The notes under the pieces were generated by a model. That model was not told where the DNA came from. It saw only the letters and a list, made by a program, of their open reading frames with translations, and did not search any database. From an uncultured bacterium (GTDB lineage: Bacteria > Krumholzibacteriota > Krumholzibacteriia > Krumholzibacteriales > Krumholzibacteriaceae), in NCBI GenBank assembly GCA_965371515.1, contig CBDUYR010000039.1, positions 1-26,402 of the forward strand: a DNA stretch of 26,402 nucleotides, given 5' to 3'. A program made the translations under genes and the position numbers. Numbering within the stretch: position 1 is the stretch's first letter; every line of letters begins with the position of its first letter. This document shows positions 7,558 through 22,760 of this stretch, piece by piece.

Positions 7558-7743
7558 TCCTCCATGATTTTCGTATGGAACATCTTCACTCCGGTATTGT
7601 AACATCTTTCCGCCCCTTTCCCAAACCGATTGAGCCCGGCAGCCGCCTCATCGTCCGCTTGACACTGCGGGCCGGCGGCTGTAATCTGGATTCCTGCGGC
7701 CCGGGACGGCCGGTCGCCCTGTCGATTGAAAAGGAGATACGAG

Positions 7744-8952
7744 ATGCTTCGCCATCTTCTCAGCGCAAACGATTCGAAGATAATCCTCCTCGTCATGGAC
7801 GGCGTCGGCGGCATAAGGACTTCCGCCTTTCCCGAGACCGCCCTCGACGCGGCACATACACCCAACCTCGACGCCCTGGCCGCCGGAGGCCTGTGCGGCA
7901 GGTCCCTTCCTGTCGCGCGGGGCATTACGCCCGGCAGCGGGCCGGCGCATTTCGCCCTGTTCGGATACGACCCGCTCGCTCCTGAAAACGACGTGGGCAG
8001 AGGGGTCGTGGAAGTGACCGGGACAGGGTACGATGTTCTCCCCGGTGACGTCGCGATAAGGGGCAATTTCGCGACAATCGACGGCGCCGGAATCCTCACC
8101 GACAGGCGTGCGGGCAGGATCCCCCACGAGGAGGGGGAGAGGATCTGCGCAAAGCTCGGAGAGGGGATAAAGGAGATCGACGGGGTCGAGATAATAGTGA
8201 TGCCCGTGCGCGAATACAGGTTCGGCGTGGTCCTCAGGGGAGAAGGCCTCTCTCCCGATGTCGAGGAGACCGATCCCCAGGTGACGGGAAAGAAGCCCCT
8301 GTCTCCCGTCGCGATGAACACCGGCGCGGAGCGGACCTCCTCGATCATCGCCAGGTTCATCGAGATGGCCGGCGCGATCCTCGCCGACGAGGAGAAGGCA
8401 AACGCCGTCCTTATGAGGGGCATATCGAGCAGGCCAGTCATCGAACCCTTTTCGGACAGGTACGGTCTTTCAGGGGCCGCCGTCGCGGCATACCCGCTCT
8501 ATCGCGGCGTCGCCCGGCTCTGCGGAATGGACATCGTCGACACAGGATTTTCCGTGAAGGAGGAATTCGATACGGCATCTGAGATATTCAGGCGGGGAGA
8601 GCACGATTTCATCTTCATACACGTCAAAAAGACCGACTCGTACGGTGAGGACGGCAACCTCGATGGGAAAAAGGGGATCATCGAGGAGGTCGACGCTCAC
8701 CTGACGATATTGCTCGGTCTCGAGCCCGATGTACTGATCGTCACTGGCGACCACTCCAGCCCCTGCGCGATGAAGAGCCACTCGTGGCACCCGGTACCGT
8801 TCTTACTGAAGTCTGAATTCTGCGGTATCGACGGGGCCGCCGCCTTCAGCGAGGCCGAATGCGACCGAGGCGCCCTTGGCGTCTTTCCCGCGGTCGATAT
8901 CATGACGTTCGCCCTGGCCAATTCCGGCAGACTGAAGAAGCACGGCGCGTGA
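7744..8952 (+). CDS. apgM: 2,3-bisphosphoglycerate-independent phosphoglycerate mutase (ApgM type)
   Basis: LLVMDGVG, TPNLD, TPGSGPAHFALFGYDP, AIRGNFAT, DRRAGRI, HVKKTDSYGEDG, TGDHSSP, HSWHPVP; SD AAGGAG. Confidence 0.93.
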   Translation: MLRHLLSANDSKIILLVMDGVGGIRTSAFPETALDAAHTPNLDALAAGGLCGRSLPVARGITPGSGPAHFALFGYDPLAPENDVGRGVVEVTGTGYDVLPGDVAIRGNFATIDGAGILTDRRAGRIPHEEGERICAKLGEGIKEIDGVEIIVMPVREYRFGVVLRGEGLSPDVEETDPQVTGKKPLSPVAMNTGAERTSSIIARFIEMAGAILADEEKANAVLMRGISSRPVIEPFSDRYGLSGAAVAAYPLYRGVARLCGMDIVDTGFSVKEEFDTASEIFRRGEHDFIFIHVKKTDSYGEDGNLDGKKGIIEEVDAHLTILLGLEPDVLIVTGDHSSPCAMKSHSWHPVPFLLKSEFCGIDGAAAFSEAECDRGALGVFPAVDIMTFALANSGRLKKHGA

Positions 8953-8955
8953 TAC

Positions 8956-10365
8956 CTACCTGCCGCCGGCCTTCCTCCGTAATGTCATGACGACCTGTTC
9001 GAGGGTCTCGATATTCTTTTTCTCGATTTTCTGGTCGTTCCCGGCATTAGTGAGCATCCTGATCGAATAGATCTTCCCGTCCAGCAGCGTCATCGTCCAA
9101 AGCCAGGCTCCTCCGCCCCTCGTCCTCGTGCCCTGCCTGTATGTCCATCTGCCGTACGCAGCCGGAACAGCCTCCTCGCCGACTATGAGCTTTTTCGAGC
9201 CCTCCGCCGTCATCGCGTACAATCCCTCCTGCGAGCTTGCGTAACGGGCCATCCTGTCATGTATGTCCTCGAGGATGACCTCGCTCCTGCTTGTCGGCTG
9301 CCACCTCAGTTCGAGCTCGAGATATCCCTCGTCCGACTGCACGATCCACTGGATCATGCCGGCATCGGACCCTCCGGCTGCGTCGCTCGGGACGAACCCG
9401 GTCGGGATATCCATTTCGACGAGCGGCGCGACTACTTCGAGGGCCTTCATCCGGTATATCGCCTGGATGTTGAAGGGGAGAAGGTTCGCCTGGAAATATC
9501 CTCCGGCTCCGGGGACATCGATCTCCTGAATCGACCTGGAAAGTGTTCTCCCTCTTCTTATCGCATCGACGCTGAGCCCGATCAGGTCGACCATGTAGCT
9601 TCTCTGGAGGTCGATAATGCCGGCATCTCCGGCCTGGCCCTGTCCGGGCACGACGATTTTCGGCTGCTCGTCGTCGAGCCTGTCGAGCGTGATCAGCCAG
9701 TTCCCGAAATCGGCTCCCTGGTCGCCCATGTTGGGATGATACCCGTTGCTGACCAGTCCCCCTGTAAAGACTATACGCTTTGAGGGGACGGCCACTACGA
9801 GGTCTCCCGCCGTGTGCCCCGGGCCGAAATATGTCACGACTGCCTCGATCCCTCCGAGATCGAGCCTGAGCTCGCCGGCGACGAATGAATCTGGCAGGGC
9901 CGGCTCAACATCCTTTATCATCTCGAAGACATCGGGCTTCCGGTCCCTGTAATGATCCCTGTAGATGGGGCTGAACCTCTCCATCTCGATCTTCGTCTCC
10001 GGTCTCGCGAGGATGATCGCGCCCTCGGCGCGGAAGATCGAATTCCCCCAGACGTGATCGGGATGATAGTGCGTATTGACGAGATGGCTGACAGGCAGGT
10101 CGGTGATCGAGCGGATCGCCTTGAGGAGCTGCCTGGCGTGGTTGTAGCTGAATCTCGAATCGACCACGAGCACCGATTCGTCTCCAACGATGAACCCGGA
10201 GTTCGCCCCGAGGCCCTCCGCCGATGACGGCCCCGGCGCGATCCACGCATAGACCCTCTCGTCGAGACGGATCAGGCCCGTGCCGCTGATGTCGGCCTGC
10301 CGGGAGCACCCGGTCGCGATTGCGGCGGCAAGTGCCGCGGCGATGATCCATCTGTTCACTTTCAT
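8956..10365 (-). CDS. MBL-fold metallo-hydrolase lipoprotein with an extra C-terminal domain
   Basis: Lipobox IATGC; ANSGFIVG, NTHYHPDHVWGN (HxHxDH), GHTAGD; C-terminal extension of about 150 aa. Confidence 0.85.
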   Translation of the reverse strand: MKVNRWIIAAALAAAIATGCSRQADISGTGLIRLDERVYAWIAPGPSSAEGLGANSGFIVGDESVLVVDSRFSYNHARQLLKAIRSITDLPVSHLVNTHYHPDHVWGNSIFRAEGAIILARPETKIEMERFSPIYRDHYRDRKPDVFEMIKDVEPALPDSFVAGELRLDLGGIEAVVTYFGPGHTAGDLVVAVPSKRIVFTGGLVSNGYHPNMGDQGADFGNWLITLDRLDDEQPKIVVPGQGQAGDAGIIDLQRSYMVDLIGLSVDAIRRGRTLSRSIQEIDVPGAGGYFQANLLPFNIQAIYRMKALEVVAPLVEMDIPTGFVPSDAAGGSDAGMIQWIVQSDEGYLELELRWQPTSRSEVILEDIHDRMARYASSQEGLYAMTAEGSKKLIVGEEAVPAAYGRWTYRQGTRTRGGGAWLWTMTLLDGKIYSIRMLTNAGNDQKIEKKNIETLEQVVMTLRRKAGGR

Positions 10366-11310: not shown

Positions 11311-11375
11311 CTGTGTTGCCCGAAAGGGTGTCCGCGACTGCACGGACAGGGCTGTGAATGAAGGAGGATGGTTTC

Positions 11376-12269
11376 ATGCTCAAGGGTCTATACGTTGCAC
11401 TCGTCACGCCGTTTACGGAGGACGGAAGCCTGAACGAGGAGAAACTCCGCGAGCTGGTCCGGTTCCATATCGACGCCGGCGCCGATGGACTGGTCCCTTG
11501 CGCTACTACCAGCGAGAACCCCACATACACGTGGCAGGAGCATTTCAGGATCATCGAGATCGTCGTCGAGGAAGCGGCGGGAAAGCTCAAGGTAGTGGCC
11601 GGATGCGGCACCAATTCGACGACCAAATCGATCGCAAATATCAAGAAGGCGAAGGAGCTCGGAGCGGACGGTGCCATGGTAGTGACGCCGTACTACAACA
11701 AACCGACGCAGGAGGGGCTTTACGCGCATTTCATGAAGCTCGCCGACGACGGCCGGCTCCCGCTGATGCTCTACAACGTCCCGAGCAGGACCGGCCTGAA
11801 CATGAAGCCGGCTACCGTCGCCAGGCTCTCGCAGCACGACCTCATCGTGGCCGTCAAGGAAGCGAGCGGCTCGGTAGAGCAGATGGCCGAGATCATCATG
11901 CTGTGCGGGGGGAAGATAAACCTCCTCTCGGGAGATGATTCGATAACCTTCCCGATACTGGCAATTGGCGGAACTGGCGTGGTGAGTGTCGTGGGAAACA
12001 TCGTCCCGAAGGACGTGCGCGCGATGATATCGGCGTATGAGAAGGGTGACCTCGACAAAGCCCGCGACCTGCATTACAAGCTGCTCCCCCTCAACCAGTC
12101 GATGTTCATAGAAACAAATCCGATGCCGGTCAAGGAAGCGATGAACATGCTCGGCATGGGCGTCGGAAACGTCCGGCTGCCGCTTGTCAGGATGCTCCCC
12201 GAGAATCTTGTCAAGCTCGCGTCCTCGCTGACCGATTACGGGCTCGAGGTGAAAAATCCGCCTGCATAG
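11376..12269 (+). CDS. dapA: 4-hydroxy-tetrahydrodipicolinate synthase
   Basis: ALVTPF, TTSE, VVTPYYNKPTQEG, LYNVPSRT, VKEASG (Schiff-base Lys), LSGDD, ETNPMPVK; SD AAGGAGG; directly followed by dapB. Confidence 0.95.
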   Translation: MLKGLYVALVTPFTEDGSLNEEKLRELVRFHIDAGADGLVPCATTSENPTYTWQEHFRIIEIVVEEAAGKLKVVAGCGTNSTTKSIANIKKAKELGADGAMVVTPYYNKPTQEGLYAHFMKLADDGRLPLMLYNVPSRTGLNMKPATVARLSQHDLIVAVKEASGSVEQMAEIIMLCGGKINLLSGDDSITFPILAIGGTGVVSVVGNIVPKDVRAMISAYEKGDLDKARDLHYKLLPLNQSMFIETNPMPVKEAMNMLGMGVGNVRLPLVRMLPENLVKLASSLTDYGLEVKNPPA

Positions 12270-12278
12270 GGGCACGAA

Positions 12279-13043
12279 ATGATCAAGGTAGTTATCAACG
12301 GCGTCCTCGGCAGGATGGGCGGCATCGTCGCCGGTGAGATCGTCGCAGCAGACGATCTCACCCTTGCGGGCGCTGTCGAGGTCGCAGGTCACGAAGGTAT
12401 CGGGAGCACCGTCTGCGGGGTCGAGGTGACCGACGAACTGACGTCTGCCCTGGCCGGCGCGGATGTCGCCGTCGACTTCACCCTGCCCGAATCGGCTTCA
12501 GCCTTCTTCGAGGCCTGTTCCGCCGCGGGGGTACCTGCGATAACGGGAACGACCGGCCTGTCTCACCAGCAGATCACCCGGGCGAGGGAGATCTCGGGCA
12601 GCATCCCCGTTCTGATCAGCCCGAATATGTCGCTCGGAGTCAATCTTCTCTTCAAGGTCACCGAGGATATTGCCAGGGCCCTCCCGGGATTCGACATAGA
12701 GATCACCGAGATCCACCACAACAGGAAGAAAGACTCCCCGAGCGGCACCGCCGTAAAACTGGCCGAGGCGGCACTCAAGGCCCGCGCCGGGGCGACCGTG
12801 ATCCACGGAAGGCAGGGCATGGTCGGCGAGAGGCCCACCGGAGAGATCGGCATGCACTCACTGCGCGGCGGCGACGTTACCGGCGAGCACACCGTCATCT
12901 TCGCGGGAGAGGGCGAGAGGGTCGAGTTGACACACAGGGCCCATTCGCGCAGGACGTTCGCGATGGGCACGCTGCGAGCGATAAGGTTCATCGCCGGCAA
13001 ACAGGCCGGTTTTTACAAGATGTCGGATGTCCTGGGCCTTTAA
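12279..13043 (+). CDS. dapB: 4-hydroxy-tetrahydrodipicolinate reductase
   Basis: GRMG, VDFT, GTTG, SPNMSLGVN, EIHHNRKKDSPSGTA, LRGGDVTGEH, THRAHSR. Confidence 0.96.
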   Translation: MIKVVINGVLGRMGGIVAGEIVAADDLTLAGAVEVAGHEGIGSTVCGVEVTDELTSALAGADVAVDFTLPESASAFFEACSAAGVPAITGTTGLSHQQITRAREISGSIPVLISPNMSLGVNLLFKVTEDIARALPGFDIEITEIHHNRKKDSPSGTAVKLAEAALKARAGATVIHGRQGMVGERPTGEIGMHSLRGGDVTGEHTVIFAGEGERVELTHRAHSRRTFAMGTLRAIRFIAGKQAGFYKMSDVLGL

Positions 13044-13199: not shown

Positions 13200-13643
13200 A
13201 TGAAATCTGACCGGAACAACAAGCAATTCCAACCGGAGGGTGGATCTCTGCCTCGTATTGTGTTCCATGTCGCTATAGCCGTGCTCGGCTGGCTCCTCTT
13301 CGCCTACTTCTGGAGGGCCGTCGGCGAGCGGGGCCTGTCGCCCGGGGTCATTATTTCCCTTGTCGCGATGGCGATATTTCTCGCCACAGTTATCATCATG
13401 ACGACGCTCTGGATCGTGCACAACCTCAGGATTTCCCGACGTGACAGGCGCACCGGAAACAGGCCGGTCGCCGAAGTTCTATACCAGCAGGACAAGATCG
13501 GCCAGACGATCGAAGGCGAGGATTTCGATTCTCTCAGGAGCGCCGATATGATAGAGGTGGCCGTCAAAGACGGGAAAAAGACCTACCGGAGGGCAAAGCG
13601 CTTGTCTCAACCGGGTTCGAATATCTTTAGAATAAACGAGTGA
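13200..13643 (+). CDS. PgaD-like inner-membrane accessory subunit
   Basis: Two TM helices followed by LWIVHNLRISRRDRR, resembling the PgaD W..YN..RF...RR motif; lies immediately before a PgaC-like GT2. Confidence 0.6.
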   Translation: MKSDRNNKQFQPEGGSLPRIVFHVAIAVLGWLLFAYFWRAVGERGLSPGVIISLVAMAIFLATVIIMTTLWIVHNLRISRRDRRTGNRPVAEVLYQQDKIGQTIEGEDFDSLRSADMIEVAVKDGKKTYRRAKRLSQPGSNIFRINE

Positions 13644-13653
13644 GCGATCAGCG

Positions 13654-14913
13654 ATGGATCTTTTGACAATACTCGATCAGCTTGAAAATTCGGCGATCTA
13701 TTTGATCGCACTGGTCTTCTTTGCCTGGTATCCGATCTTCTCGAGCATGATGTGGATCATAACATCACTGATCTACTTCTTCAGGCAGGAGAGAAAACAG
13801 GGGGGAGATTTCTACAAACTGGATATCTATCCCTCCGTCACTGTTCTCATCCCGGCCTACAACGAGGAACGGAACATCGAGAACACACTCAGCGCCGCGA
13901 CTTCGATCGATTATCCCGAGTACGAGGTTGTCGTAGTGGACGACGCCTCGACTGACCGTACGGCCGAGATCGTTACTCGCTTCGTAAGCCAGAGAAAAGT
14001 CCGGCTCATCCGCAAGCTGGTAAACGAGGGCAAGGCGATGGCGCTCAACGACGCCATCCCCTGCACGAACGGAGAGATACTGCTCATCATAGACGCGGAC
14101 GCGAGTCCCGACCCGGATATCCTCAAGTACATTGTTCCCCACTTTCGCTTCCCCCGCGTGGCAGCCGTCACGGGAAACCCAAGGGTCGCGAACAGGCAGA
14201 GCCTTCTCGGCAAGCTCCAGTCGATAGAGTTCACGTCGATCATCAGTCTTCAGCGACGTGCGCAGCGCGTATGGGGAAGGATAATGACCATGTCCGGGGT
14301 CGTAGGGGCATTCAGGCGCTCGGCCCTGAACGATGTGGGGCAGTTCAGTCCCGAGATGGCGACCGAGGACATCGATCTTACATGGAAACTGCACCTGAGA
14401 CATTACGAGGTGCGTTACGAGGCGCGGGCCCTCGTCTGGATGAGAGTGCCGCAATCCCTTCCGGGGCTCTGGAAGCAGCGGCGGAGATGGGCGCTGGGCC
14501 TCTCGCAGGTTTTAAGGAGGCACGGGGTGACGGCCCTCGCCTGGAGGCACCGGAGGCTCTGGCCCGTCATGCTCGAATCGACATTGTCGATACTCTGGGC
14601 TTACGCATTCGTCCTGCTCACAGTGATCTGGATCATCTCCTACTCTGTCGGGTACCCCCCGGTGGGAGCGAGCCCGATACCGAACTGGTGGGGGATGCTG
14701 ATATCGACCGTCTGCCTGTCGCAGCTCCTCACAGGTGTGCTCCTCGACAGGCGCTATGACCGCGGGCTCGGCTGGTATTTCGGGATCGCCGTCTTCTATC
14801 CGATAATCTACTGGATACTGCTCGCGATCATAACAGCCTCCTATTCGCCCAGGGGCCTGATGAGAAATCCCATCGCCGGACGGCTGACCCGATGGCAGCC
14901 TGTCAGGGAGTGA
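13654..14913 (+). CDS. pgaC: Poly-beta-1,6-N-acetylglucosamine synthase-like GT2 glycosyltransferase
   Basis: PAYNE, DDAS, NEGKAMALN, IDAD, AVTGNPRV, EFTSIISLQRRAQRVWG, TEDIDLTW, QRRRW; TM helices at both ends; PgaC/IcaA-like length. Confidence 0.85.
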   Translation: MDLLTILDQLENSAIYLIALVFFAWYPIFSSMMWIITSLIYFFRQERKQGGDFYKLDIYPSVTVLIPAYNEERNIENTLSAATSIDYPEYEVVVVDDASTDRTAEIVTRFVSQRKVRLIRKLVNEGKAMALNDAIPCTNGEILLIIDADASPDPDILKYIVPHFRFPRVAAVTGNPRVANRQSLLGKLQSIEFTSIISLQRRAQRVWGRIMTMSGVVGAFRRSALNDVGQFSPEMATEDIDLTWKLHLRHYEVRYEARALVWMRVPQSLPGLWKQRRRWALGLSQVLRRHGVTALAWRHRRLWPVMLESTLSILWAYAFVLLTVIWIISYSVGYPPVGASPIPNWWGMLISTVCLSQLLTGVLLDRRYDRGLGWYFGIAVFYPIIYWILLAIITASYSPRGLMRNPIAGRLTRWQPVRE

Positions 14914-14922
14914 CAACCGAGA

Positions 14923-16515
14923 ATGACCATGAAGCCGAAGAAACTGATACCGATATTGATACTGCTGGTGGCCGTACTGCTTCCAGCCCGAAGCCGGGCC
15001 GCATCAAGCGCGGATATCGACGAGTCGGTCCACAAGGCCCGTGAAGCCGCCGCGGCCGACCGCCATTCCGAGGCGATAGCGCTGTTCGAGAAGGCGTGCG
15101 CCCTGGACTCCTCGCTCGTTTCCCGTCTCGGCAAGGAGATCGGCTTTCAGTACACCTGGGACGACAGGCCAGGCGAAGCGCTCCCCTATTTCGAAGCGTA
15201 TATCGCTAATCACCCGGATGATTCCGAGGGGCTTCTCGGCTACGCCCTTGCTCTCTCATGGGCCGACCGCCAGGAGGAATCGCTCGAATACTACAGAAGT
15301 GTACAGAGCAGCTATCCCACTTCTCTCCAGGCCAGTGTCGGCGAGGCTCGCGTCATATCCTGGATGGACAGGAACAGCGAAGCCGAACTGCTCTACCGGA
15401 AGATCCTGGATTCCGAGCCGGAAAACCTGGAAGCGAGGCTCGGGCTCGCGCAAGTGATCAACTGGCAGGGTCGACACCGGGAGGCGAGAGAGCATTACAC
15501 GAATATCCTTGAGGACCACCCCGGCAATCGTGACGCGATCCTGGGACTCGCCCAGGCTGAGGTGTGGCTCGGGCGCAACGACAGGGCCCGCGAGCTGCTC
15601 GAGGGATTGGAGGGCGATGCCGAGGCAGAGAAGCTTCTCGCGGGGATCGACCGGGGATCGTCATCAAATCTACGGTTCGATTACGGCGTCTCTAAGGACT
15701 CGGACGAGCTGGTCATGCACCGTTTCGAGGCTGGAGCGACCTATTACATCGACGATCTGACTTCGGCCGGGATCTTCGTCGGCAGACTCTCGATGCGGCA
15801 GGATGACTTTCCCCATATCACGGTCAAGAGCGTCTCCTTGAGGTTCTACAGGCGATTCAACGAGGATATCTCTATCAATGTCGATCTCAGGCCCCTCATA
15901 ACGGACTACTTCGATCCTTTCACGTTCGATACCTGGCTCACCTGGACGCCGAACTGGCGCCTCAGGTTCGATTTCGGCGCCTACCGCCAGCTCGTCGAGA
16001 CCCCGCTGTCGGTCATGCGCAGCATTACGGCAACGGGCGGCAACCTCGGTGTCGGTGTGCGCGCGAATGACCGGCTCCTTGTGAACGGCATCTTCGATCT
16101 CAGAGGGTACTCGGACAACAACAACCGCACGCTCTGGGGCACGAGCCTTTCATGGCTCGCTGTAAAGAAGCCGGTTGAGCTGTCGCTGGTGCCGGGCTAT
16201 ATGGGCTTTTCCTTCGCCCGCTGGGAGGACAACGGGTACTACAGCCCGGAGGAGTACCACAACATCGGACTGGGCGCAAAGATGCAGTACAACGTAAAGG
16301 GGAAGGTCACCTTCACCGTCGAGGGCCGCGTGTCGGAGGAGAAGGAGGGGGGCGGGGATTTCTTCACCGTCGGTTCCTTCAGAGCGGCGGCGGCGCACGA
16401 TGCGCACGAGCGGGTGACATGGGGCGGCGAGTTCTTCACATCCAATTCCAGCCTCGCCGGCGACGCGGGATACGGCAGGACGCTGCTGCAGATTTTTCTC
16501 GTCGTGAGGTTGTGA
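14923..16515 (+). CDS. TPR plus outer-membrane beta-barrel exopolysaccharide export protein (PgaA-like)
   Basis: Signal peptide; TPR repeats (ARLGLAQVINWQG, AILGLAQAEVWLG); C-terminal amphipathic strands with GYYSP, a motif seen in PgaA/BcsC-type porins; operon context. Confidence 0.7.
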   Translation: MTMKPKKLIPILILLVAVLLPARSRAASSADIDESVHKAREAAAADRHSEAIALFEKACALDSSLVSRLGKEIGFQYTWDDRPGEALPYFEAYIANHPDDSEGLLGYALALSWADRQEESLEYYRSVQSSYPTSLQASVGEARVISWMDRNSEAELLYRKILDSEPENLEARLGLAQVINWQGRHREAREHYTNILEDHPGNRDAILGLAQAEVWLGRNDRARELLEGLEGDAEAEKLLAGIDRGSSSNLRFDYGVSKDSDELVMHRFEAGATYYIDDLTSAGIFVGRLSMRQDDFPHITVKSVSLRFYRRFNEDISINVDLRPLITDYFDPFTFDTWLTWTPNWRLRFDFGAYRQLVETPLSVMRSITATGGNLGVGVRANDRLLVNGIFDLRGYSDNNNRTLWGTSLSWLAVKKPVELSLVPGYMGFSFARWEDNGYYSPEEYHNIGLGAKMQYNVKGKVTFTVEGRVSEEKEGGGDFFTVGSFRAAAAHDAHERVTWGGEFFTSNSSLAGDAGYGRTLLQIFLVVRL

Positions 16516-16521
16516 CGATTC

Positions 16522-17460
16522 ATGAAAGCCGGATATGCCATGAAGAAGAGGCTGTTGCTCTGTCTCTTCGTCTCGATCGCAGGGCTGTTGCTATCGAGCG
16601 GCTGCGGGGAGAGCTACGGCGAACCTGTTCCAGATTTCGATGCCGCGCGTGACGGCGTTCCGATCATCACCTATCATTACTTCAGCGAGGGAGCCACGCC
16701 CGACCGGACCCTGAGGGTGATCGGAGCCGTGCTGCTGAACCTCCCTCTGCTCCCTCCCCTCGAGGAATGGACCATATCTGCCGGTACATTCGAAAGGCAC
16801 CTGGAATACCTCCATGAGAACGGCTACCGTTCCGTGACGATAGACGAGGTGATCGACCATATGGCGGGGACGAAGGTACTCGAGGGCAAGTGCGTCGCTC
16901 TCACCTTCGACGACGGCGACGGGAGTGTCTATGATCATGCCTATCCACTTCTGGCAAGGTACGGGATGAAGGGAACCCTGTTCGTCATCACCTCGAAGAT
17001 GGGGCTGGAGTGGAACGAGCTCTCGCTCTCATCTATTGACGAGCTTCGGGAGATGCAGCGCTCTGGCGTGATGTCGATCCAGTCACACACCCACGATATG
17101 CACTACAAGATCAAGCACGGAAAGACCCCTCATCCGACCTTCGATGTGCTGGCCAGGAGCGGCATCAGCGATGAGTGGTACGAGGTCAGGGATGATCTCG
17201 TCAAATCTCGCGACTTGATCGGGCACCTGTTCGGAGAAAAACCGAAGGCGCTTGCCTGGCCGTTCGGATTCGGCTCGGCCCATAGCGACGCGATCGCCAT
17301 GGAGGCCGGCTTCGACGGCATCTGCAGTCTCTGGCCCGGCACGAATTTCCGCGGCGATTCGCCCCTGTTCATGAAACGTTATACGATCACTGCGCGTACT
17401 ACGCTGCGCGACTTCCGCATGATGTCGACGGGCCGTTTCGAGGAATCAGACGAAGAATAG
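16522..17460 (+). CDS. Polysaccharide deacetylase (CE4) lipoprotein, PgaB-N/IcaB-like
   Basis: Lipobox LSSGC; PIITYH, ALTFDDG, QSHTHDMH, LAWPFG; no room for a GH153 domain. Start may be 16540. Confidence 0.85.
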   Translation: MKAGYAMKKRLLLCLFVSIAGLLLSSGCGESYGEPVPDFDAARDGVPIITYHYFSEGATPDRTLRVIGAVLLNLPLLPPLEEWTISAGTFERHLEYLHENGYRSVTIDEVIDHMAGTKVLEGKCVALTFDDGDGSVYDHAYPLLARYGMKGTLFVITSKMGLEWNELSLSSIDELREMQRSGVMSIQSHTHDMHYKIKHGKTPHPTFDVLARSGISDEWYEVRDDLVKSRDLIGHLFGEKPKALAWPFGFGSAHSDAIAMEAGFDGICSLWPGTNFRGDSPLFMKRYTITARTTLRDFRMMSTGRFEESDEE

Positions 17461-17487
17461 AAAAAGGCAGAGGATCTCTCCCCTGCC
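17461..17487 (-). terminator. Intrinsic terminator of the lrp-lyase-hom-ALDH operon
   Basis: Minus strand GGCAGGGGA-GAGA-TCCTCTGCC-TTTTT, between convergent genes. Confidence 0.7.
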
Positions 17488-17520
17488 CACTCATTCCCCA
17501 ATCGTTATTACAGCTTCAAT

Positions 17521-18933
17521 CTAGAGATTGAAGCAGACGACTCGCGGTTCGGTCATCTCCTGGAGGGCGAACTTGATGCCCTCGCGCCCGAGACCGCTGT
17601 TCTTTACGCCGCCGAACGGCATCATGTCTACGCGGTAGTCGGACGAGTCGTTGATGATGATGCCGCCGACCTCGAGCTCCCTTATCGCCTTGTAGGCCTT
17701 GCCGATGTCCTTCGTGAATATGCCTGCGTGCAGGCCGAAGTCGACCGCGTTGGCCCTGGTGATCGCCTCGTCGAGATCCGCGACCGGGTAGAGGTTCACC
17801 GTCGGGGCGAAGACCTCGTCCTTGTCTATGCGGCACCCTTCGGGAACGTCTGCCAGGACCGTGGGATCGTAGATCGCGCCGTTGCGCGTCCCGCCGGTGA
17901 GCACGCGGGCGCCCTTGGCGACGGCGTCGTTGACCCACTTCTCGATTCTGACAGCCTCTCCCTCGGCGATCATGGGCCCCATGTCGCAATCCTCGTCGAG
18001 CTTCGGTCCGACCTTGTACTGCCTCGTTCGCGAGACAAACAAGGTCTCGAACTTCTTGTAGATGCCCTCTTCGATATATATGCGCTGGACCCCGATGCAG
18101 TTCTGCCCGGCGGCCCAGAAGGCGCCCGACACAGAGTTCTCGACGGCCTGCTCGAGGTCGCAGTCGTCGCATACGATAACCGGCGTGTTGGAGCCGAGTT
18201 CCATCCCGATCTTCTTCAGGCCGGCCTTCTTCACGATCTCCAGGCCCGCCTCTACGCCGCCGGTGAAGCTTACCATCCTCACCCTGGGATCGGTGACGAG
18301 CGGATCGCCGATCTTCGCTCCGTAACCCGTAACGCAGTTGAGGATGTTATCGGGCAGGCCGGCCTCCATAAGCGCCTCGCACAGCTTGAGCGCCGACAGC
18401 GGGGTGACGGTCGCCGGCTTGAGGACGACCGAGTTGCCGCCCGCGATCGCCGGGCCGAGCTTGTGGGCAACGAGGTTGAGCGGATCGTTGAACGGCGTGA
18501 TCGCGGCGATTATGCCGATCGGGAACCTGAAATAATAGCCGAGCCTGTTCTCCGACCCGATGTTCGTATCGAACGGGATCGTCTCGCCGTTTATCCTCCG
18601 GGCCTCCTCGGCCGAGATCGTCATCGTCTGGGCGGCGCGGTAGACCTCCTTGCGGGCCTCACCGATCGTCTTGCTACCTTCACGGGCTATGATGACTGCG
18701 AACTCCTCGGCATTGTCGTCGATCATGTCCGCGGCCTTTTTGAGGATTCTGACCCTCTCGTGCACTGGCAGGGCGCGGCTGATGCGACACCCTTCCTCGG
18801 CGGCCGTGATCGCCGCCTTGATATCATCGGCCGTCCCGCTCGGAACCGTATCTATCACCGAGTTGTCGAACGGGTCGCGGACCTCGATCGTGTCCTTGCC
18901 CTCGACCCATTTCCCTGCGATGAGCATCTTCAT
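17521..18933 (-). CDS. NAD(P)-dependent non-phosphorylating aldehyde dehydrogenase
   Basis: ITPFNDPLNL, KPATVTP, SFTGG, MELGSN (catalytic Glu), AGQNCIG (catalytic Cys), EVFAP, MPFGGVKNSGLGREG; ATGA overlap with hom. Confidence 0.93.
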   Translation of the reverse strand: MKMLIAGKWVEGKDTIEVRDPFDNSVIDTVPSGTADDIKAAITAAEEGCRISRALPVHERVRILKKAADMIDDNAEEFAVIIAREGSKTIGEARKEVYRAAQTMTISAEEARRINGETIPFDTNIGSENRLGYYFRFPIGIIAAITPFNDPLNLVAHKLGPAIAGGNSVVLKPATVTPLSALKLCEALMEAGLPDNILNCVTGYGAKIGDPLVTDPRVRMVSFTGGVEAGLEIVKKAGLKKIGMELGSNTPVIVCDDCDLEQAVENSVSGAFWAAGQNCIGVQRIYIEEGIYKKFETLFVSRTRQYKVGPKLDEDCDMGPMIAEGEAVRIEKWVNDAVAKGARVLTGGTRNGAIYDPTVLADVPEGCRIDKDEVFAPTVNLYPVADLDEAITRANAVDFGLHAGIFTKDIGKAYKAIRELEVGGIIINDSSDYRVDMMPFGGVKNSGLGREGIKFALQEMTEPRVVCFNL

Positions 18934-19958
18934 GCCTGTACCATCCTGTCTATAGCCAGCATGTCAATGAGAAGCGAATATCCCGTCTCTATCTTTCCGG
19001 CGCCGGGGCCGACGATCGTCACCTCGCCGAGAAGATCGGTCACGAATGTCAGCGCGTTCGTAGCCCCGCCGACCGCGGCGAGGGGCTCGGTCAGCGCTAT
19101 CTTCTCCGGTTTGACCGAAGCCTTTACACCGCTGCCGTCGCGGGTGACCTTGCCGATCAACTTCCAGCGCTTCCCGTCAGCTTTGGCCGCCGCTACGTCC
19201 TCGAGGGTTATCTGTGTGATACCCGTCCTGTCAACGTCTTCGGGGGAAATGTCAGCGCCCATCACGGACTTGGCCAGGATGACGACCTTGGCAAGGGCGT
19301 CGAAGCCCTCCACGTCGGCCGTCGGGTCGGCCTCGGCGAATCCGAGTTCCTGGGCCTCCTTGAGGACCTCATCGTACGCCCTTCCGGCCTCCATGTTGGT
19401 CAGGATAAAGTTCGTCGTGCCGTTGAGGATGCCGCGGATCTCGGTGATCTCGTTCCCCGTGAGGCAGAACTCGCCGAGGTTCAGGACCGGAGTGCCGGCG
19501 ACCACGGTTCCCTCGTAACGGAACTGCACACCCTTGCTCTTCGCAAGCGCGGCGAGTTCCTTGAAGAAGAGGGCCGTCGGGCCCTTGTTCGTCGTTATCA
19601 GATGCTTGCCGCCCTCGAGGGCCGCCCTGAAGTGGCTGTTGGCAGGCTCGCCCGTCTTTATGTCTGTGTACGAGACTTCGATCACCGTGTCGGCATCGCA
19701 CTGCTTGATCGTCTCGAGCGCGTCGAGCCCCGTCGTCGCGCCGGGATACTCCGAGATCTTTCCATCGGCGGCGAGTTCGAGGAGTTTGCCGAGATCCAGG
19801 CCGTTATTGTCAAGCACCGAGCCGAGCTTGAAATCGCTCACCGCGACGACCGAATAATCGAAGCCGTACTTTTTTCTCAGCTCGTCCTTCTTCTTGAGCA
19901 GGATCTCCGCCAGGCCCTGCCCGACGACACCGAATCCAATGAATGCGAGTTTCTGCAT
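18930..19958 (-). CDS. hom: Homoserine dehydrogenase (short form, no ACT domain)
   Basis: GFGVVG, TTNKGP, YEGTVVAGTP, GILNGTTNFIL, AQELGFAEADPTADVEGFDALAK, GPGAG; 342 aa. Confidence 0.93.
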   Translation of the reverse strand: MQKLAFIGFGVVGQGLAEILLKKKDELRKKYGFDYSVVAVSDFKLGSVLDNNGLDLGKLLELAADGKISEYPGATTGLDALETIKQCDADTVIEVSYTDIKTGEPANSHFRAALEGGKHLITTNKGPTALFFKELAALAKSKGVQFRYEGTVVAGTPVLNLGEFCLTGNEITEIRGILNGTTNFILTNMEAGRAYDEVLKEAQELGFAEADPTADVEGFDALAKVVILAKSVMGADISPEDVDRTGITQITLEDVAAAKADGKRWKLIGKVTRDGSGVKASVKPEKIALTEPLAAVGGATNALTFVTDLLGEVTIVGPGAGKIETGYSLLIDMLAIDRMVQA

Positions 19959-20005
19959 CGTTTCCTCCCTCAGGTATGTTCTATCGTTTCGTCAGTCGCC
20001 CGGCC

Positions 20006-21196
20006 CTATGCGTTGAGCGCCTCGTCGAGATCTTCCATCAGATCGTTCTCGTCCTCGATCCCTGCCGAATACCTGATCAGGTTGTCGGGTACACCCGCCT
20101 TCATGCGCTCCTCGGGCCCGAGCTGAAAGTGTGTCGTCGCCGCCGGCTGGATCGCCACCGTCTGTGACGAGCCGAGGTGCGTCGTGTGAACGGCGATCGT
20201 CAGGTTGTCGATCACCTTCCTGGTCGCCTCGAGACCGCCCTTGACGTTGAAGCTCATCAGAGACGAGAAGGCAGACATCGTCTTCTTCGCCACCTCGTGC
20301 TGGGGATGGCTAGGCAGGCCGGGGTAGCTCACAGACTCGATCTTCGGGTGCTTCTCGAGGTACTTCGCTATCGCCATCGCGTTGTCCGAATGCTTCTTCA
20401 TCCGCAGCGACAGGCTGTCGAGACCGAGCAGGCAGAGCCACGCGTTGAACGGAGCGATCGACGGACCTATGTTCCTGTAGCCGATGTGCCTGATGTGGTC
20501 CATGAATTCCTTCTTGCCGCATATCACTCCGGAGAGGCTCGTCCCGTTTCCGCTGATATACTTTGTCGCCGAGTGGATCACGATGTCGGCGCCCATCTCG
20601 ATCGGCCGCATCAGAGCGGGCGAGCAGATCGTGTTGTCGACCATCAGTGGTATCCCCTTCGATTTTGCCAGCTCGGCGAGCGCCGGGATGTCGGCGACGA
20701 AGAGGTTCGGGTTGCTAGGCGACTCGACATGCATCAGCTTCGTCTTCGGGGTGATCGCCTTCTCCCACTCCTCGATCTTATCAGGCTCGATGACCCAGTT
20801 CGTCTTGATGCCCATCCTCGGGAACGACTCGGCAAAGAGCTGCTGCGTCCCGCCGTATACCCGCTGCGACGAGGCGATCTCCTCGCCCGATACGACGAGG
20901 TGATGGGCGACCATGAAGACCGCCGCCATGCCCGAAGCGGTTCCGAGCCCTGCCTCGGTCCCCTCGAGAAGGGCCATTCTCTTCTCGAAGATGTCGCATG
21001 TCGGGTTATTGATGCGCCCGTACGCGAACCCTTCCCTCTTGTAGCTGTAGAGCTCGGCGGCCCATTCGGCCGACTCGTAGGGGAATACCGAGCTCTGGAT
21101 CAGCGGCGGCGGCATCGTGTTGTATCGCAGCTGCTCTTCCCAGGGGTATCCTCCCTTGACGGCGATCGTGTCGAATCTCATCTTCTTCTCATCCAT
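20006..21196 (-). CDS. PLP-dependent Cys/Met-metabolism gamma-family enzyme (MetB/MetZ/MGL-like), substrate uncertain
   Basis: YGRINNPT, SGMAA, YGGT, ESPSNP, VDNT, HSATKY (PLP Lys), YPGLPSHP; SD AAGGAGG before ATG 21196. Confidence 0.9.
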   Translation of the reverse strand: MDEKKMRFDTIAVKGGYPWEEQLRYNTMPPPLIQSSVFPYESAEWAAELYSYKREGFAYGRINNPTCDIFEKRMALLEGTEAGLGTASGMAAVFMVAHHLVVSGEEIASSQRVYGGTQQLFAESFPRMGIKTNWVIEPDKIEEWEKAITPKTKLMHVESPSNPNLFVADIPALAELAKSKGIPLMVDNTICSPALMRPIEMGADIVIHSATKYISGNGTSLSGVICGKKEFMDHIRHIGYRNIGPSIAPFNAWLCLLGLDSLSLRMKKHSDNAMAIAKYLEKHPKIESVSYPGLPSHPQHEVAKKTMSAFSSLMSFNVKGGLEATRKVIDNLTIAVHTTHLGSSQTVAIQPAATTHFQLGPEERMKAGVPDNLIRYSAGIEDENDLMEDLDEALNA

Positions 21197-21740
21197 TTCC
21201 GCCTCCTTCTGGCTGTGACTTTCCGTTCTTTCTGTTGTTTCTTTTTCCACCGTTTTCGCTTCCAGCTGCTTCCGTGCATCCGGATTCCACGACCGGCACG
21301 CCGATATCCCTCTTAAGCGTTGAGAGCACGAACATCGTCTTCACGCGATCGATTCCCTTTATTCTCGTCAGCGAATGCAGGAGGAAGTTCTCGTAGTCGT
21401 CGATGTCCCTCGTATAGACCTTGAGCAGATAGTCGTCGTTGCCGGCGATGTGGTAGCACTCACGGACGCTCGAGCATGCACCGACGAATTCGTGGAAGTT
21501 TTCAATAGAGTCTTTCTGGTGCAGGTTCAGCGACACGGCGACGAAAGACACGGTTCCCATGCCGACCTTTTTATTGTCGACAAGCGCCGTGTATCCCGTT
21601 ATCACGTCCCTCTCCTCGAGCTTCCTCACCCGCTCGAGGACGGCGGGAGGACTGAGGCCGACCCGTTCGGCGAGCTGCACATTGGGTATGCGCCCCTGCT
21701 CCTGCAGGATCTCGACGATCTGCCTGTCCACCGGATGCAT
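21189..21740 (-). CDS. Lrp/AsnC family transcriptional regulator
   Basis: DRQIVEILQEQGR, LAERVGLSPPAVLERVRKLE, ECYHIAGNDDYLLKV; stop overlaps the lyase start. Confidence 0.95.
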   Translation of the reverse strand: MHPVDRQIVEILQEQGRIPNVQLAERVGLSPPAVLERVRKLEERDVITGYTALVDNKKVGMGTVSFVAVSLNLHQKDSIENFHEFVGACSSVRECYHIAGNDDYLLKVYTRDIDDYENFLLHSLTRIKGIDRVKTMFVLSTLKRDIGVPVVESGCTEAAGSENGGKRNNRKNGKSQPEGGGNG

Positions 21741-21807
21741 TTCCACTATTTCCGCTGCCAACGAGATTCTCCTTGGTTTATTAGGGTTATCTGCGTATAG
21801 GCTGAAG

Positions 21808-21836
21808 ATAGTAAGGCATACGCCGAATATTGTCAA
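21808..21836 (-). promoter_or_regulatory. Putative sigma70 promoter of the lrp operon
   Basis: Minus strand TTGACA-N17-TACTAT. Confidence 0.65.
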
Positions 21837-21947: not shown

Positions 21948-22760
21948 ATGAAGATAGCGCTCGTGCAGCAGCACGCCGTAAGGGAAATGGAGGACAATAT
22001 CGCCAGGGGGCTCGCGGCCCTCGAGGAGGCGGCCCGAGCCGGGGCGGACCTCGTGTCGTACGCCGAGCTGGCCTTCAGCTGGTTCCTTCCCCAGCACGAG
22101 GCGGAGGGCAGCGTCCTCGAGCTGGCCGAGCCTGTGCCGGGGCCGATCACGGACCGCTTCTGCGCAAAGGCGAGGGAGCTGGGCGTTGCGGTCGTCCTCA
22201 ACCTCTTCGAGCGGGACGGCGACAGGACATACGACTGCTCGCCGGTGATCGATTCGGACGGGACGATCGTCGGCAGGAACAGGATGGTCCATGTGGCCGA
22301 CCTCCCCTGCTTTCACGAGAAGGGGTACTATGCCCCCGGCGATCTAGGCGCCGGAGTCTTCGACACATCGGCCGGACGTATCGGCGTGGCAATCTGCTAC
22401 GACCGCCATTTCCCCGAGTACATGCGTGCCCTCGCCCTCAACGGGGCGGAGATAGTCGTGGTGCCTCAGGCCGGCTCGATCGGGGAATGGCCCGAAGGCC
22501 TCTACGAGGCTGAGCTGCGAGTCGCCGCATTCCAGAACGGCTACTTCGCCGCGCTGGTCAACAGGGTCGGAAAGGAGGACTGCCTCGAGTTCGCCGGCGA
22601 GTCGTACGCAGTCGGCCCGGACGGGAGAGTCCTGGCGCAGGCCCCCGCCGGCGTGGACCATATCCTCTATTGCGACATCGCCCTGTCGGAGCTGGAAGAC
22701 TGTCACGCGCGCAGGTTCTTCCTTCCATCGCGCCTTCCGGAGATATATCAGGATCTGTAG
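21948..22760 (+). CDS. Carbon-nitrogen hydrolase (nitrilase superfamily; N-carbamoylputrescine amidase/beta-ureidopropionase-like)
   Basis: MKIALVQ, YAEL (Glu), FHEKGYYAPGD, GVAICYDRHFPE (Cys), AFQNGYF, VNRVG. Confidence 0.88.
   Translation: MKIALVQQHAVREMEDNIARGLAALEEAARAGADLVSYAELAFSWFLPQHEAEGSVLELAEPVPGPITDRFCAKARELGVAVVLNLFERDGDRTYDCSPVIDSDGTIVGRNRMVHVADLPCFHEKGYYAPGDLGAGVFDTSAGRIGVAICYDRHFPEYMRALALNGAEIVVVPQAGSIGEWPEGLYEAELRVAAFQNGYFAALVNRVGKEDCLEFAGESYAVGPDGRVLAQAPAGVDHILYCDIALSELEDCHARRFFLPSRLPEIYQDL

Follow-up and report, generated by a model that had tools for sequence, protein, structure and literature searches.

A stretch of 26,402 nt, positions 1-26,402 of contig CBDUYR010000039.1 from an uncultured Krumholzibacteriaceae bacterium (GCA_965371515.1) and hereafter called the window, carries an operon of four minus-strand genes (17521..21761) in the order Lrp/AsnC regulator, lyase X, homoserine dehydrogenase (Hom) and aldehyde dehydrogenase (ALDH). 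Lyase X is a MetY-related fold-type I pyridoxal phosphate (PLP) enzyme of the Cys/Met family. From the observed gene content, gene order and conservation, together with the lack of matches for the enzymes of the forward route, we somewhat favour the view that the operon runs the aspartate pathway backwards, from methionine or homocysteine through homoserine to aspartate semialdehyde.

Organization and conservation of the operon

The regulator gene (21189..21761, minus strand; PF01037 and PF13404) likely starts at the TTG at 21761, which has a GGAG 7 nt upstream and lies at about the position of the start codon in the Lrp genes of relatives; the in-frame ATG at 21740, the start given in a preliminary description of this DNA, lies 7 codons later and would shorten the gene to 21189-21740. 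Otherwise, the four genes are as first described. The C-terminal tail of Lrp runs over the start of lyase X (20006..21196, minus strand; PF01053) with an overlap of 8 nt, a 47-nt gap holding a ribosome-binding site separates lyase X from Hom (18930..19958, minus strand), and Hom overlaps the non-acylating ALDH (17521..18933, minus strand; PF00171) by 4 nt. Of the single promoter and single terminator that had been claimed, the promoter is the better founded: a sigma-70-type promoter-like site, TTGACA-17-TACTAT (21808..21836, minus strand), lies in an AT-rich stretch, and its TTGAC is unchanged in 17/17 aligned upstream regions of relatives. A terminator-like hairpin followed by a T-run (17465..17488, minus strand) fits the operon end by its position, which is all that backs it, as 3 sites of this kind were counted where chance alone predicts 4.1. 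An Rfam scan of the window gave 0 matches, so no SAM (S-adenosylmethionine) or other riboswitch was found. In one small-share sequencing run, contigs of relatives covered 28/30 window bins, which says nothing on transcription. The genes dapA (11358..12269, plus strand; TIGR00674, 339 bits, cut-off 206), whose product consumes aspartate semialdehyde, and dapB (12279..13043, plus strand; TIGR00036, 250 bits, cut-off 122) lie 4.5 kb away from the operon.

The best 80 of 405 loci were kept from a genome scan with a lyase X alignment, and the best 80 of 514 from a metagenome scan; the metagenome loci are partly duplicates of the genome loci and show the same two contexts. Among the 30 close loci, with at least 65% lyase identity, Hom is adjacent in 29, Lrp in 28 and ALDH in 21, and all four genes are present in 20. 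The nine close loci that lack an adjoining ALDH comprise five that end within 1.3 kb of the lyase, one with Asd and aspartate kinase instead (L028), two with none next door (L007, L009) and one with the lyase alone (L024). Of the 50 distant loci, a single one, from an archaeon (L045), has X-Hom-ALDH, there with a divergent Lrp, while thrC stands near X in 16 and thrH in 13. Where it can be checked, nothing that would have refuted the proposal in the preliminary description turned up: the genes are syntenic elsewhere, no MetX partner for lyase X was found in the genome, and metX occurs in 0 of the 80 genome loci kept. Several relatives have dapB directly facing the ALDH or Hom gene, and in four (L098, L100, L101, L103) Hom is left alone beside dapB and the locus no longer holds Lrp, lyase or ALDH, a pattern that would follow if the cell wall depends on the Hom step. 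In locus L004, Hom and dapB are each in two pieces (9220-10240; 11736-12385) with frameshifts, which are perhaps sequencing errors.

Probable homoserine oxidation and supply of diaminopimelate

Aspartate kinase and Asd form the textbook entry to diaminopimelate (DAP), as Hom does to threonine, and DapA requires aspartate semialdehyde. The host genome, with a completeness rating of 99.6%, has dapF in addition to dapA and dapB of the window, a DapL-like aminotransferase (445 bits, just under the cut-off of 507) and a MurE that scores over the cut-off of the DAP ligase model and has the DNPR motif, which we take to be a DAP-type mark; a LysA-like match is under its cut-off (221 bits against 298), so lysine synthesis is not shown. 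Asd gave no match in this genome and aspartate kinase was not found, one weak match being a UMP kinase, although the same searches were positive in 14/14 control genomes. Moreover, when all six frames were searched by phmmer, queries for Asd and kinase (two types each), for MetX and for ThrH gave no match, while the controls worked, a MetL query finding Hom and the others their own homologues.

The Hom of the operon is the only Hom found in the host, and a search for a second biosynthetic hom or for metX found neither (the MetA family was not searched). The operon had been described as free of homoserine acyltransferase, homoserine kinase and threonine synthase; genome-wide, this stands for MetX, which was not found, and for ThrB, which gave no match over the cut-off, but a threonine-synthase-like gene lies elsewhere (G000:C17:17110-18315, over the PRK08197 cut-off), although the genome yielded no homoserine kinase. 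An ApgM-like gene of the window (7726-8952) was tried as a homoserine kinase and rejected, since it scores as a phosphoglycerate mutase (519 bits, cut-off 468; kinase model 163, cut-off 446).

Since neither Asd nor aspartate kinase was found and DapA needs the semialdehyde, Hom run oxidatively is the only identified source. A general-base Glu together with a catalytic Cys marks the hydrolytic, one-way ALDHs; the ALDH of the operon has both (Glu245 and Cys279) and therefore cannot make aspartate semialdehyde. On this genomic pattern, it is highly probable that Hom works in the oxidative direction and supplies semialdehyde to DapA. Hom would convert homoserine to aspartate semialdehyde and NADH, DapA and DapB would take the semialdehyde for cell-wall diaminopimelate, and the ALDH would turn the surplus to aspartate, thereby keeping the first step pulled, while Lrp would sense the substrate amino acid, its putative ligand. 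The supply of DapA, put forward at first as a side branch, looks central, as neither Asd nor kinase was found in a host with the rest of the DAP pathway; the word catabolic is therefore too narrow, and the route likely also serves biosynthesis, of DAP and threonine.

Hom scores 439 bits against PRK06270 (NCBIfam, cut-off 373) and has two Pfam domains only. The lack of an ACT domain, noted earlier as a special feature, is real but is normal for this Hom family, whose solved homologues have 304-335 aa, and gives no evidence of direction. A study of the oxidative Hom class (Arthrobacter AnHSD and Rhizobium leguminosarum pRL8) describes an oxidation-only, NAD-only enzyme within the PRK06270 class (bioRxiv 10.1101/2021.02.09.430557). 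The host Hom shares with this class the PRK06270 type, the missing ACT domain and an adjacent ALDH (52% identical to that of pRL8), and its identity to the Hom proteins encoded in rhizobial clusters for homoserine and canavanine is 48-50%. It differs in being the only Hom of its genome rather than a second copy and in being, as we propose, fed by a lyase, whereas Hom of the oxidative class is fed by uptake of plant homoserine.

No listed NCBIfam model gives the ALDH a score over its cut-off. Its identity is 51-65% to the ALDHs of the catabolic clusters but 44% to the paralogue in the same genome, and the motifs NDPLN, GQNC and NDSxDxR, a signature derived in this analysis, are present in 11/11 Hom-linked ALDHs, those of the rhizobial clusters included, whereas the unlinked paralogue has NFPLN, GQVC and GDIPTFR at the same places. 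The Asp of this signature could bind the substrate amine, and the ALDH likely oxidises aspartate semialdehyde to aspartate. In Pseudomonas, purified NAD-only Hom and either of two paralogous ALDHs, with aspartase, were reported to take homoserine to fumarate via aspartate in vitro (PMC9533460); the identity comparison used the rhizobial counterparts of the assayed Pseudomonas AC and AH proteins.

The same gap extends over the family. We surveyed 37 genomes of Krumholzibacteriaceae, mostly metagenome-assembled genomes (MAGs) and kin of each other, so the counts are not independent and an absence means "not found". Asd and kinase were found together in 3 (G009, G021, G026), dapA in 33, Hom in 30 and lyase X in 24, all 24 X carriers having Hom. 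Among the six Hom-positive genomes without X, five have a sister lyase, here called lyase Y (464 aa, with a TDLG motif). Thirty genomes have dapA without Asd and kinase, and Hom is present in 27 of them and X or Y in 26. The sister family retains kinase in 7/8 genomes and Asd in 6/8, and has Hom in 1/8.

The slots on both sides of Hom are occupied by interchangeable genes. After Hom stands an ALDH, an aldehyde:ferredoxin oxidoreductase-like gene, or Asd with aspartate kinase (L028, L108, L109), all of which act, or could act, on the semialdehyde. The aldehyde:ferredoxin oxidoreductase-like gene directly follows Hom in 7/7 Heimdallarchaeota Hom loci fetched (L145-L151 range), and Asd was not found in 10/10 searched Heimdallarchaeota genomes of that type, which have X elsewhere in the genome. 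Before Hom stands X, Y (L105, L110, L281), the canavanine lyase (L142), a PRK08249 lyase in an ectoine cluster (L144), or, in L106 and six archaeal loci, an aminotransferase with an unnamed 419-aa TIM-barrel protein. It thus seems that a Hom of PRK06270 type and a partner that oxidises aldehydes form a module for homoserine oxidation that is used repeatedly and fed in different ways.

Several of these neighbours deserve a description of their own. The unnamed protein of 419-427 aa (L106:6503-7759; L145-L148, L150, L151) belongs to a group of at least 8000 clusters; its 419-aa member has no Pfam, NCBIfam or Atlas match, and its model, a TIM barrel, gave only generic, weak aldolase-like matches (best Z 12.6, root-mean-square deviation 3.5, 210 aligned) and no substrate clue. 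Speculatively, this protein could make homoserine via a 2-oxo acid. A second unnamed protein, of 413 aa, adjoins Hom together with genes for a cupin, a short-chain dehydrogenase and an aminotransferase (L152:7701-12871, L153:2036-5965, L283), L152 and L153 having Y and ALDH alongside. The PRK08249 "cystathionine gamma-synthase family" protein of ectoine-degradation clusters (L144:5527-10515; L258:3729-7155) is placed after doeB on a Klebsiella plasmid or with Hom and ALDH on a Priestia plasmid, and is a candidate diaminobutyrate gamma-lyase. In addition, L108 and L109 (genomes G059 and G049, which have Y and lack dapA) carry an Lrp-Hom-Asd-aspartate kinase operon, which could yield ATP from reversed Asd and kinase, or could be biosynthetic. 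In the window itself, a four-gene polysaccharide-like block (13200-17460; membrane protein, GT2 glycosyltransferase, TPR protein and deacetylase) separates ALDH from dapB; as its GT2 gene is found in 1/30 close loci (L002) and ALDH adjoins dapB in several relatives, the block marks a variable insertion site.

Lyases X and Y and the origin of homoserine

Lyase X has 396 aa and falls under every listed NCBIfam cut-off for MetY, MetZ, MGL and CGS, the best scores being to MetY and MetZ. The MetY model TIGR01326 gives 417 bits (cut-off 495) with the match in two stretches, the MetZ models 416 bits (cut-off 522) and 394 bits (cut-off 510), and the MGL model 391 bits (cut-off 550). A structure model, which as a PLP-free monomer does not tell the substrate, is predicted to have the MGL fold (TM about 0.9), and a fold search with it returned MGL and MetY only. 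In a quick tree of 37 proteins, X and Y form a group (SH-aLRT support 92) that is sister to MetY (97), while the canavanine lyase, PRK08249, MGL, CGL, MetB and MetZ lie on the other side; the canavanine branch is long and its placement unsure. The phylogeny that had been called for thus separates X from MetB, MetZ, MGL and the canavanine lyase but keeps it next to MetY.

The motifs first regarded as atypical, KYISGNG, TTHLGSSQT and YGGT, are all present, but MetY, CGL and MetB normally have YGG too, so that it rules out MGL only. Across 121 homologues, Lys212 (the PLP lysine), Asn217, His340 and Arg375 are invariant, Arg241 is kept in 120, His337 in 119 and Gly116 in 118; Asn217, in the GN after the PLP lysine, is a more specific mark of X than His340. 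With MetY of Thermotoga maritima (PMC8191291), X shares the Tyr/Arg/Ile set, YGG and the walling arginine, whereas it lacks the insertion after the PLP lysine and has GN for GH and S/T for D after the 340 position. An assignment as plain MetY was rejected on the score, this missing insertion, the length of 396 aa against about 430 and the failure to find a MetX; one as MetZ, on the scores and on HLGS for NLGD. The MGLs of Citrobacter freundii and Pseudomonas putida are the top sequence and fold matches (40-41% identity) and have the same likely substrate class. X was nevertheless rejected as an MGL, with Gly116 for the active-site Cys, Arg-Asn for Lys-Asp, His340 for Ser and the low score, and its proposed product is homoserine, not 2-oxobutyrate. 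As an orthologue of canavanine gamma-lyase it was rejected for its different motifs (GN and THLG against GH and VSLG), its 33% identity and its place in the tree.

In the proposed mechanism, X would eliminate methanethiol from methionine, or H2S from homocysteine, to give a vinylglycine ketimine, and would then add water to this intermediate to form homoserine, as canavanine gamma-lyase does, although X would have arisen independently of that enzyme, from a MetY-like ancestor; compared with MetY, the direction would be opposite and water the nucleophile. The 340 position is catalytic and was reported as Ser or Asn only (PMC13577012); His340 of X, or the Asp that Y has there, could activate water. 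In the alignment, Arg241 falls on the arginine of the LRD motif in three MetY proteins, and it was mapped to T. maritima Arg270 by this motif and the Lys+60 offset. In MetY, this arginine was reported to exclude succinyl groups and cysteine while still admitting a small nucleophile, whose site is occupied by a water (PMC8191291). A MetY-like Arg241 therefore favours a substituent of acetoxy size or smaller, as in methionine or homocysteine. Cystathionine, diaminobutyrate and canavanine are argued against because phmmer searches of the host found no CBS, no doeA or doeB (four queries) and no Gdx (one query), and the first two are disfavoured as substrates on these grounds. Methionine or homocysteine remains our best guess and the weakest part of the proposal. 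The host has metK, ahcY and homocysteine methyltransferases, so homocysteine can be made and remethylated. Its contig C62 (G000:C62; L167:4712-8418) also carries clustered genes for a corrinoid-like protein, an MttB-family methyltransferase and a homocysteine methyltransferase domain, which might together pass a methyl group from a methylated amine to homocysteine.

A second survey covered 101 relatives of one Bacteroidales genome, which are kin and for which completeness was not given. In these relatives X or Y usually heads thrC-thrH, and X was found in 32 genomes, Y in 40, Hom in 38 and thrH in 57. Hom occurs in only 3 of the 32 X carriers and thrH in 31. Eighteen genomes carry thrH without Hom or X; for these the presence of Y was predicted beforehand and found in 15/18, Y lying directly ahead of thrC-thrH in 13/18 of the regions fetched. 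Altogether, X or Y is present in 43/46 thrH-positive genomes without Hom and in 3/11 with Hom. In another genome set, most such Bacteroidales kept Asd, and in L074 and L284 X or Y is paired with thrC and another proposed homoserine kinase. Homoserine is required by ThrH and ThrC, so both lyases behave like its suppliers. Lyase Y is a MetY-like family of 464-489 aa with an N-terminal extension and the TDLG motif (L105:8142-9533, L077:705-2171, L153:2036-3439), and it replaces or accompanies X before Hom-ALDH or thrC-thrH. The Krumholzibacteria and Bacteroidales patterns together point to X and Y as homoserine-making lyases, and for X this product is probable on the strength of its genomic contexts and residues. 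Thus a homoserine-yielding gamma-lyase, an oxidative Hom and an ALDH of the semialdehyde-oxidising type, as the preliminary description had them, are supported by the genomic patterns and the ALDH signature.

Alternative readings and biological meaning

The genomic patterns fix the product of X and not its substrate, and the reading that comes closest to ours, though unlikely, has X make homoserine from another compound, such as SAM, S-methylmethionine, an O-acylhomoserine, diaminobutyrate or an unnamed gamma-substituted amino acid, the form given in the preliminary description. The variety of feeders before Hom is in keeping with it, namely Y, the aminotransferase with the TIM barrel, PRK08249 and the canavanine lyase, and a sulfonium leaving group would, on general grounds, ease the thermodynamics. 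However, the queries used on 160 loci found no transporter or upstream enzyme travelling with X, as would fit a substrate that is common in cells; moreover, the MetY-like arginine suggests a small substituent, and none of doeA/doeB, Gdx and MetX was found in the host.

It is distinctly less likely that X consumes homoserine, which would come from uptake, acyl-homoserine breakdown or an unrecognised reductase, with Hom still oxidative. X would then add sulfide or methanethiol to form homocysteine or methionine without acyl activation, or would dehydrate homoserine to 2-oxobutyrate. X is sister to MetY and keeps its arginine, thioether formation is the usual direction of the family, and CGL has been reported to dehydrate homoserine (PMC11229439). 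A carbon-nitrogen hydrolase gene of the window (21948-22760; under all listed NCBIfam cut-offs) lies head to head with the operon and recurs there in 6/30 close loci and in four Hom loci without X, that of G025 included; it is possibly an alternative homoserine-releasing amidase, or a mere neighbour. Against consumption by X, this hydrolase is absent from most loci, the operon has no transporter, and an unseen homoserine source would be needed in two unrelated groups. In thrH-positive Bacteroidales, X or Y also tends to be present where Hom is missing, which is the behaviour of a homoserine supplier and not of a consumer.

Ordinary biosynthesis, with a reductive Hom, X as a divergent O-acyl- or O-phospho-homoserine sulfhydrylase and an unrelated ALDH, is very improbable. 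The best NCBIfam scores of X, the GXGXXG motif of Hom and the order Lrp-X-Hom-Asd-kinase in L028, which reads biosynthetic, agree with it. In the host it is close to refuted, as kinase, Asd, MetX and homoserine kinase were not found; metX is missing from the genome loci kept, G084 has a separate metY-metX-hom cluster besides X and Y, and the ALDH bears the catabolic-cluster signature. Canavanine utilisation as in Pseudomonas and Rhizobiales is barely conceivable, for although the three enzyme types are the same and Hom and ALDH are 50% and 51% identical to those of the rhizobial cluster, the lyase is of other descent, neither Gdx nor aspartase was found in the genome and the operon has no ABC importer.

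The canavanine pathway is nonetheless the nearest known system. In Pseudomonas canavaninivorans and Rhizobiales, a PLP enzyme of the same Cys/Met family was described ahead of a short Hom and a related ALDH, with dapA nearby in Rhizobiales as here, and the canavanine gamma-lyase has the same proposed chemistry, adding water onto a vinylglycine ketimine (PMC9533460). The likeness suggested earlier therefore holds for the chemistry and not for descent; the canavanine lyase used for comparison (L142:9887-11104) comes from an unannotated record and was identified by gene context. The canavanine pathway also has Gdx, an ABC importer and aspartase, none of which is in this operon, and in a host where Asd and kinase were not found the homoserine route looks needed for DAP and not optional. 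The ectoine analogy, drawn to DoeX and DoeC, proved loose. The doeABXCD system of Halomonas elongata shares an Lrp/AsnC regulator and an ALDH assigned to aspartate semialdehyde, but its semialdehyde comes from a transaminase, not from Hom (PMC3187862).

Several points weigh against the methionine-to-semialdehyde route. Hom has the nucleotide motif GFGVVG and not GXGXXN, the motif proposed for the NAD-only oxidative class (bioRxiv 10.1101/2021.02.09.430557), and two rhizobial proteins have GFGGVN. A His at position 340 also occurs in one ordinary MetY. Hom is adjacent to X in only 1/50 distant loci, and X is alone in many distant genomes; a short-chain dehydrogenase near X in 7/50 distant loci is possibly a hidden, non-homologous Hom. 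In the family survey, G025 has Hom and neither lyase, three dapA-positive genomes (G008, G010 and G012; 75, 94 and 89% complete) have none of Asd, kinase and Hom, and G009 and G026, 2 of the 24 X carriers, also hold Asd and kinase, so complementarity is not strict. Among the Bacteroidales, G102, G139 and G146 are thrH-positive and have none of Hom, X and Y, and ThrH can act as a phosphoserine phosphatase alone. The host has a separate MGL-like enzyme that would compete for methionine, and aspartase was not found there with one query. Under standard conditions, exchanging a thiol or thioether group for water is not energetically favourable, so product removal must pull it. Finally, enzymes of the Cys/Met family were reported to degrade homoserine readily to 2-oxobutyrate (PMC11229439).

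A literature search over titles and abstract openings, with few subscription papers, returned nothing relevant on a methionine-to-homoserine enzyme or on DAP or threonine synthesis without the forward enzymes. The oxidising half of the route is already known, while the feeder family, which apparently substitutes for kinase and Asd or for Hom, did not appear in the papers searched, and other unnamed enzymes occupy the same slot before Hom. More tentatively, X and Y may be widespread, undescribed methionine (or homocysteine) hydrolases by which many uncultured bacteria and archaea build the aspartate family from the top down. If so, methionine would lead through homoserine to diaminopimelate in Krumholzibacteria, replacing kinase and Asd, or to threonine in Bacteroidales, replacing Hom, and a second, independent origin of water-adding gamma-replacement, after that of canavanine gamma-lyase, would have arisen from MetY. 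In anoxic habitats, the enzymes would also be a further biological origin of methanethiol or sulfide. Moreover, whole lineages would bypass the textbook entry by mining methionine or a relative, which would explain their pathway holes and change auxotrophy calls based on MAGs.

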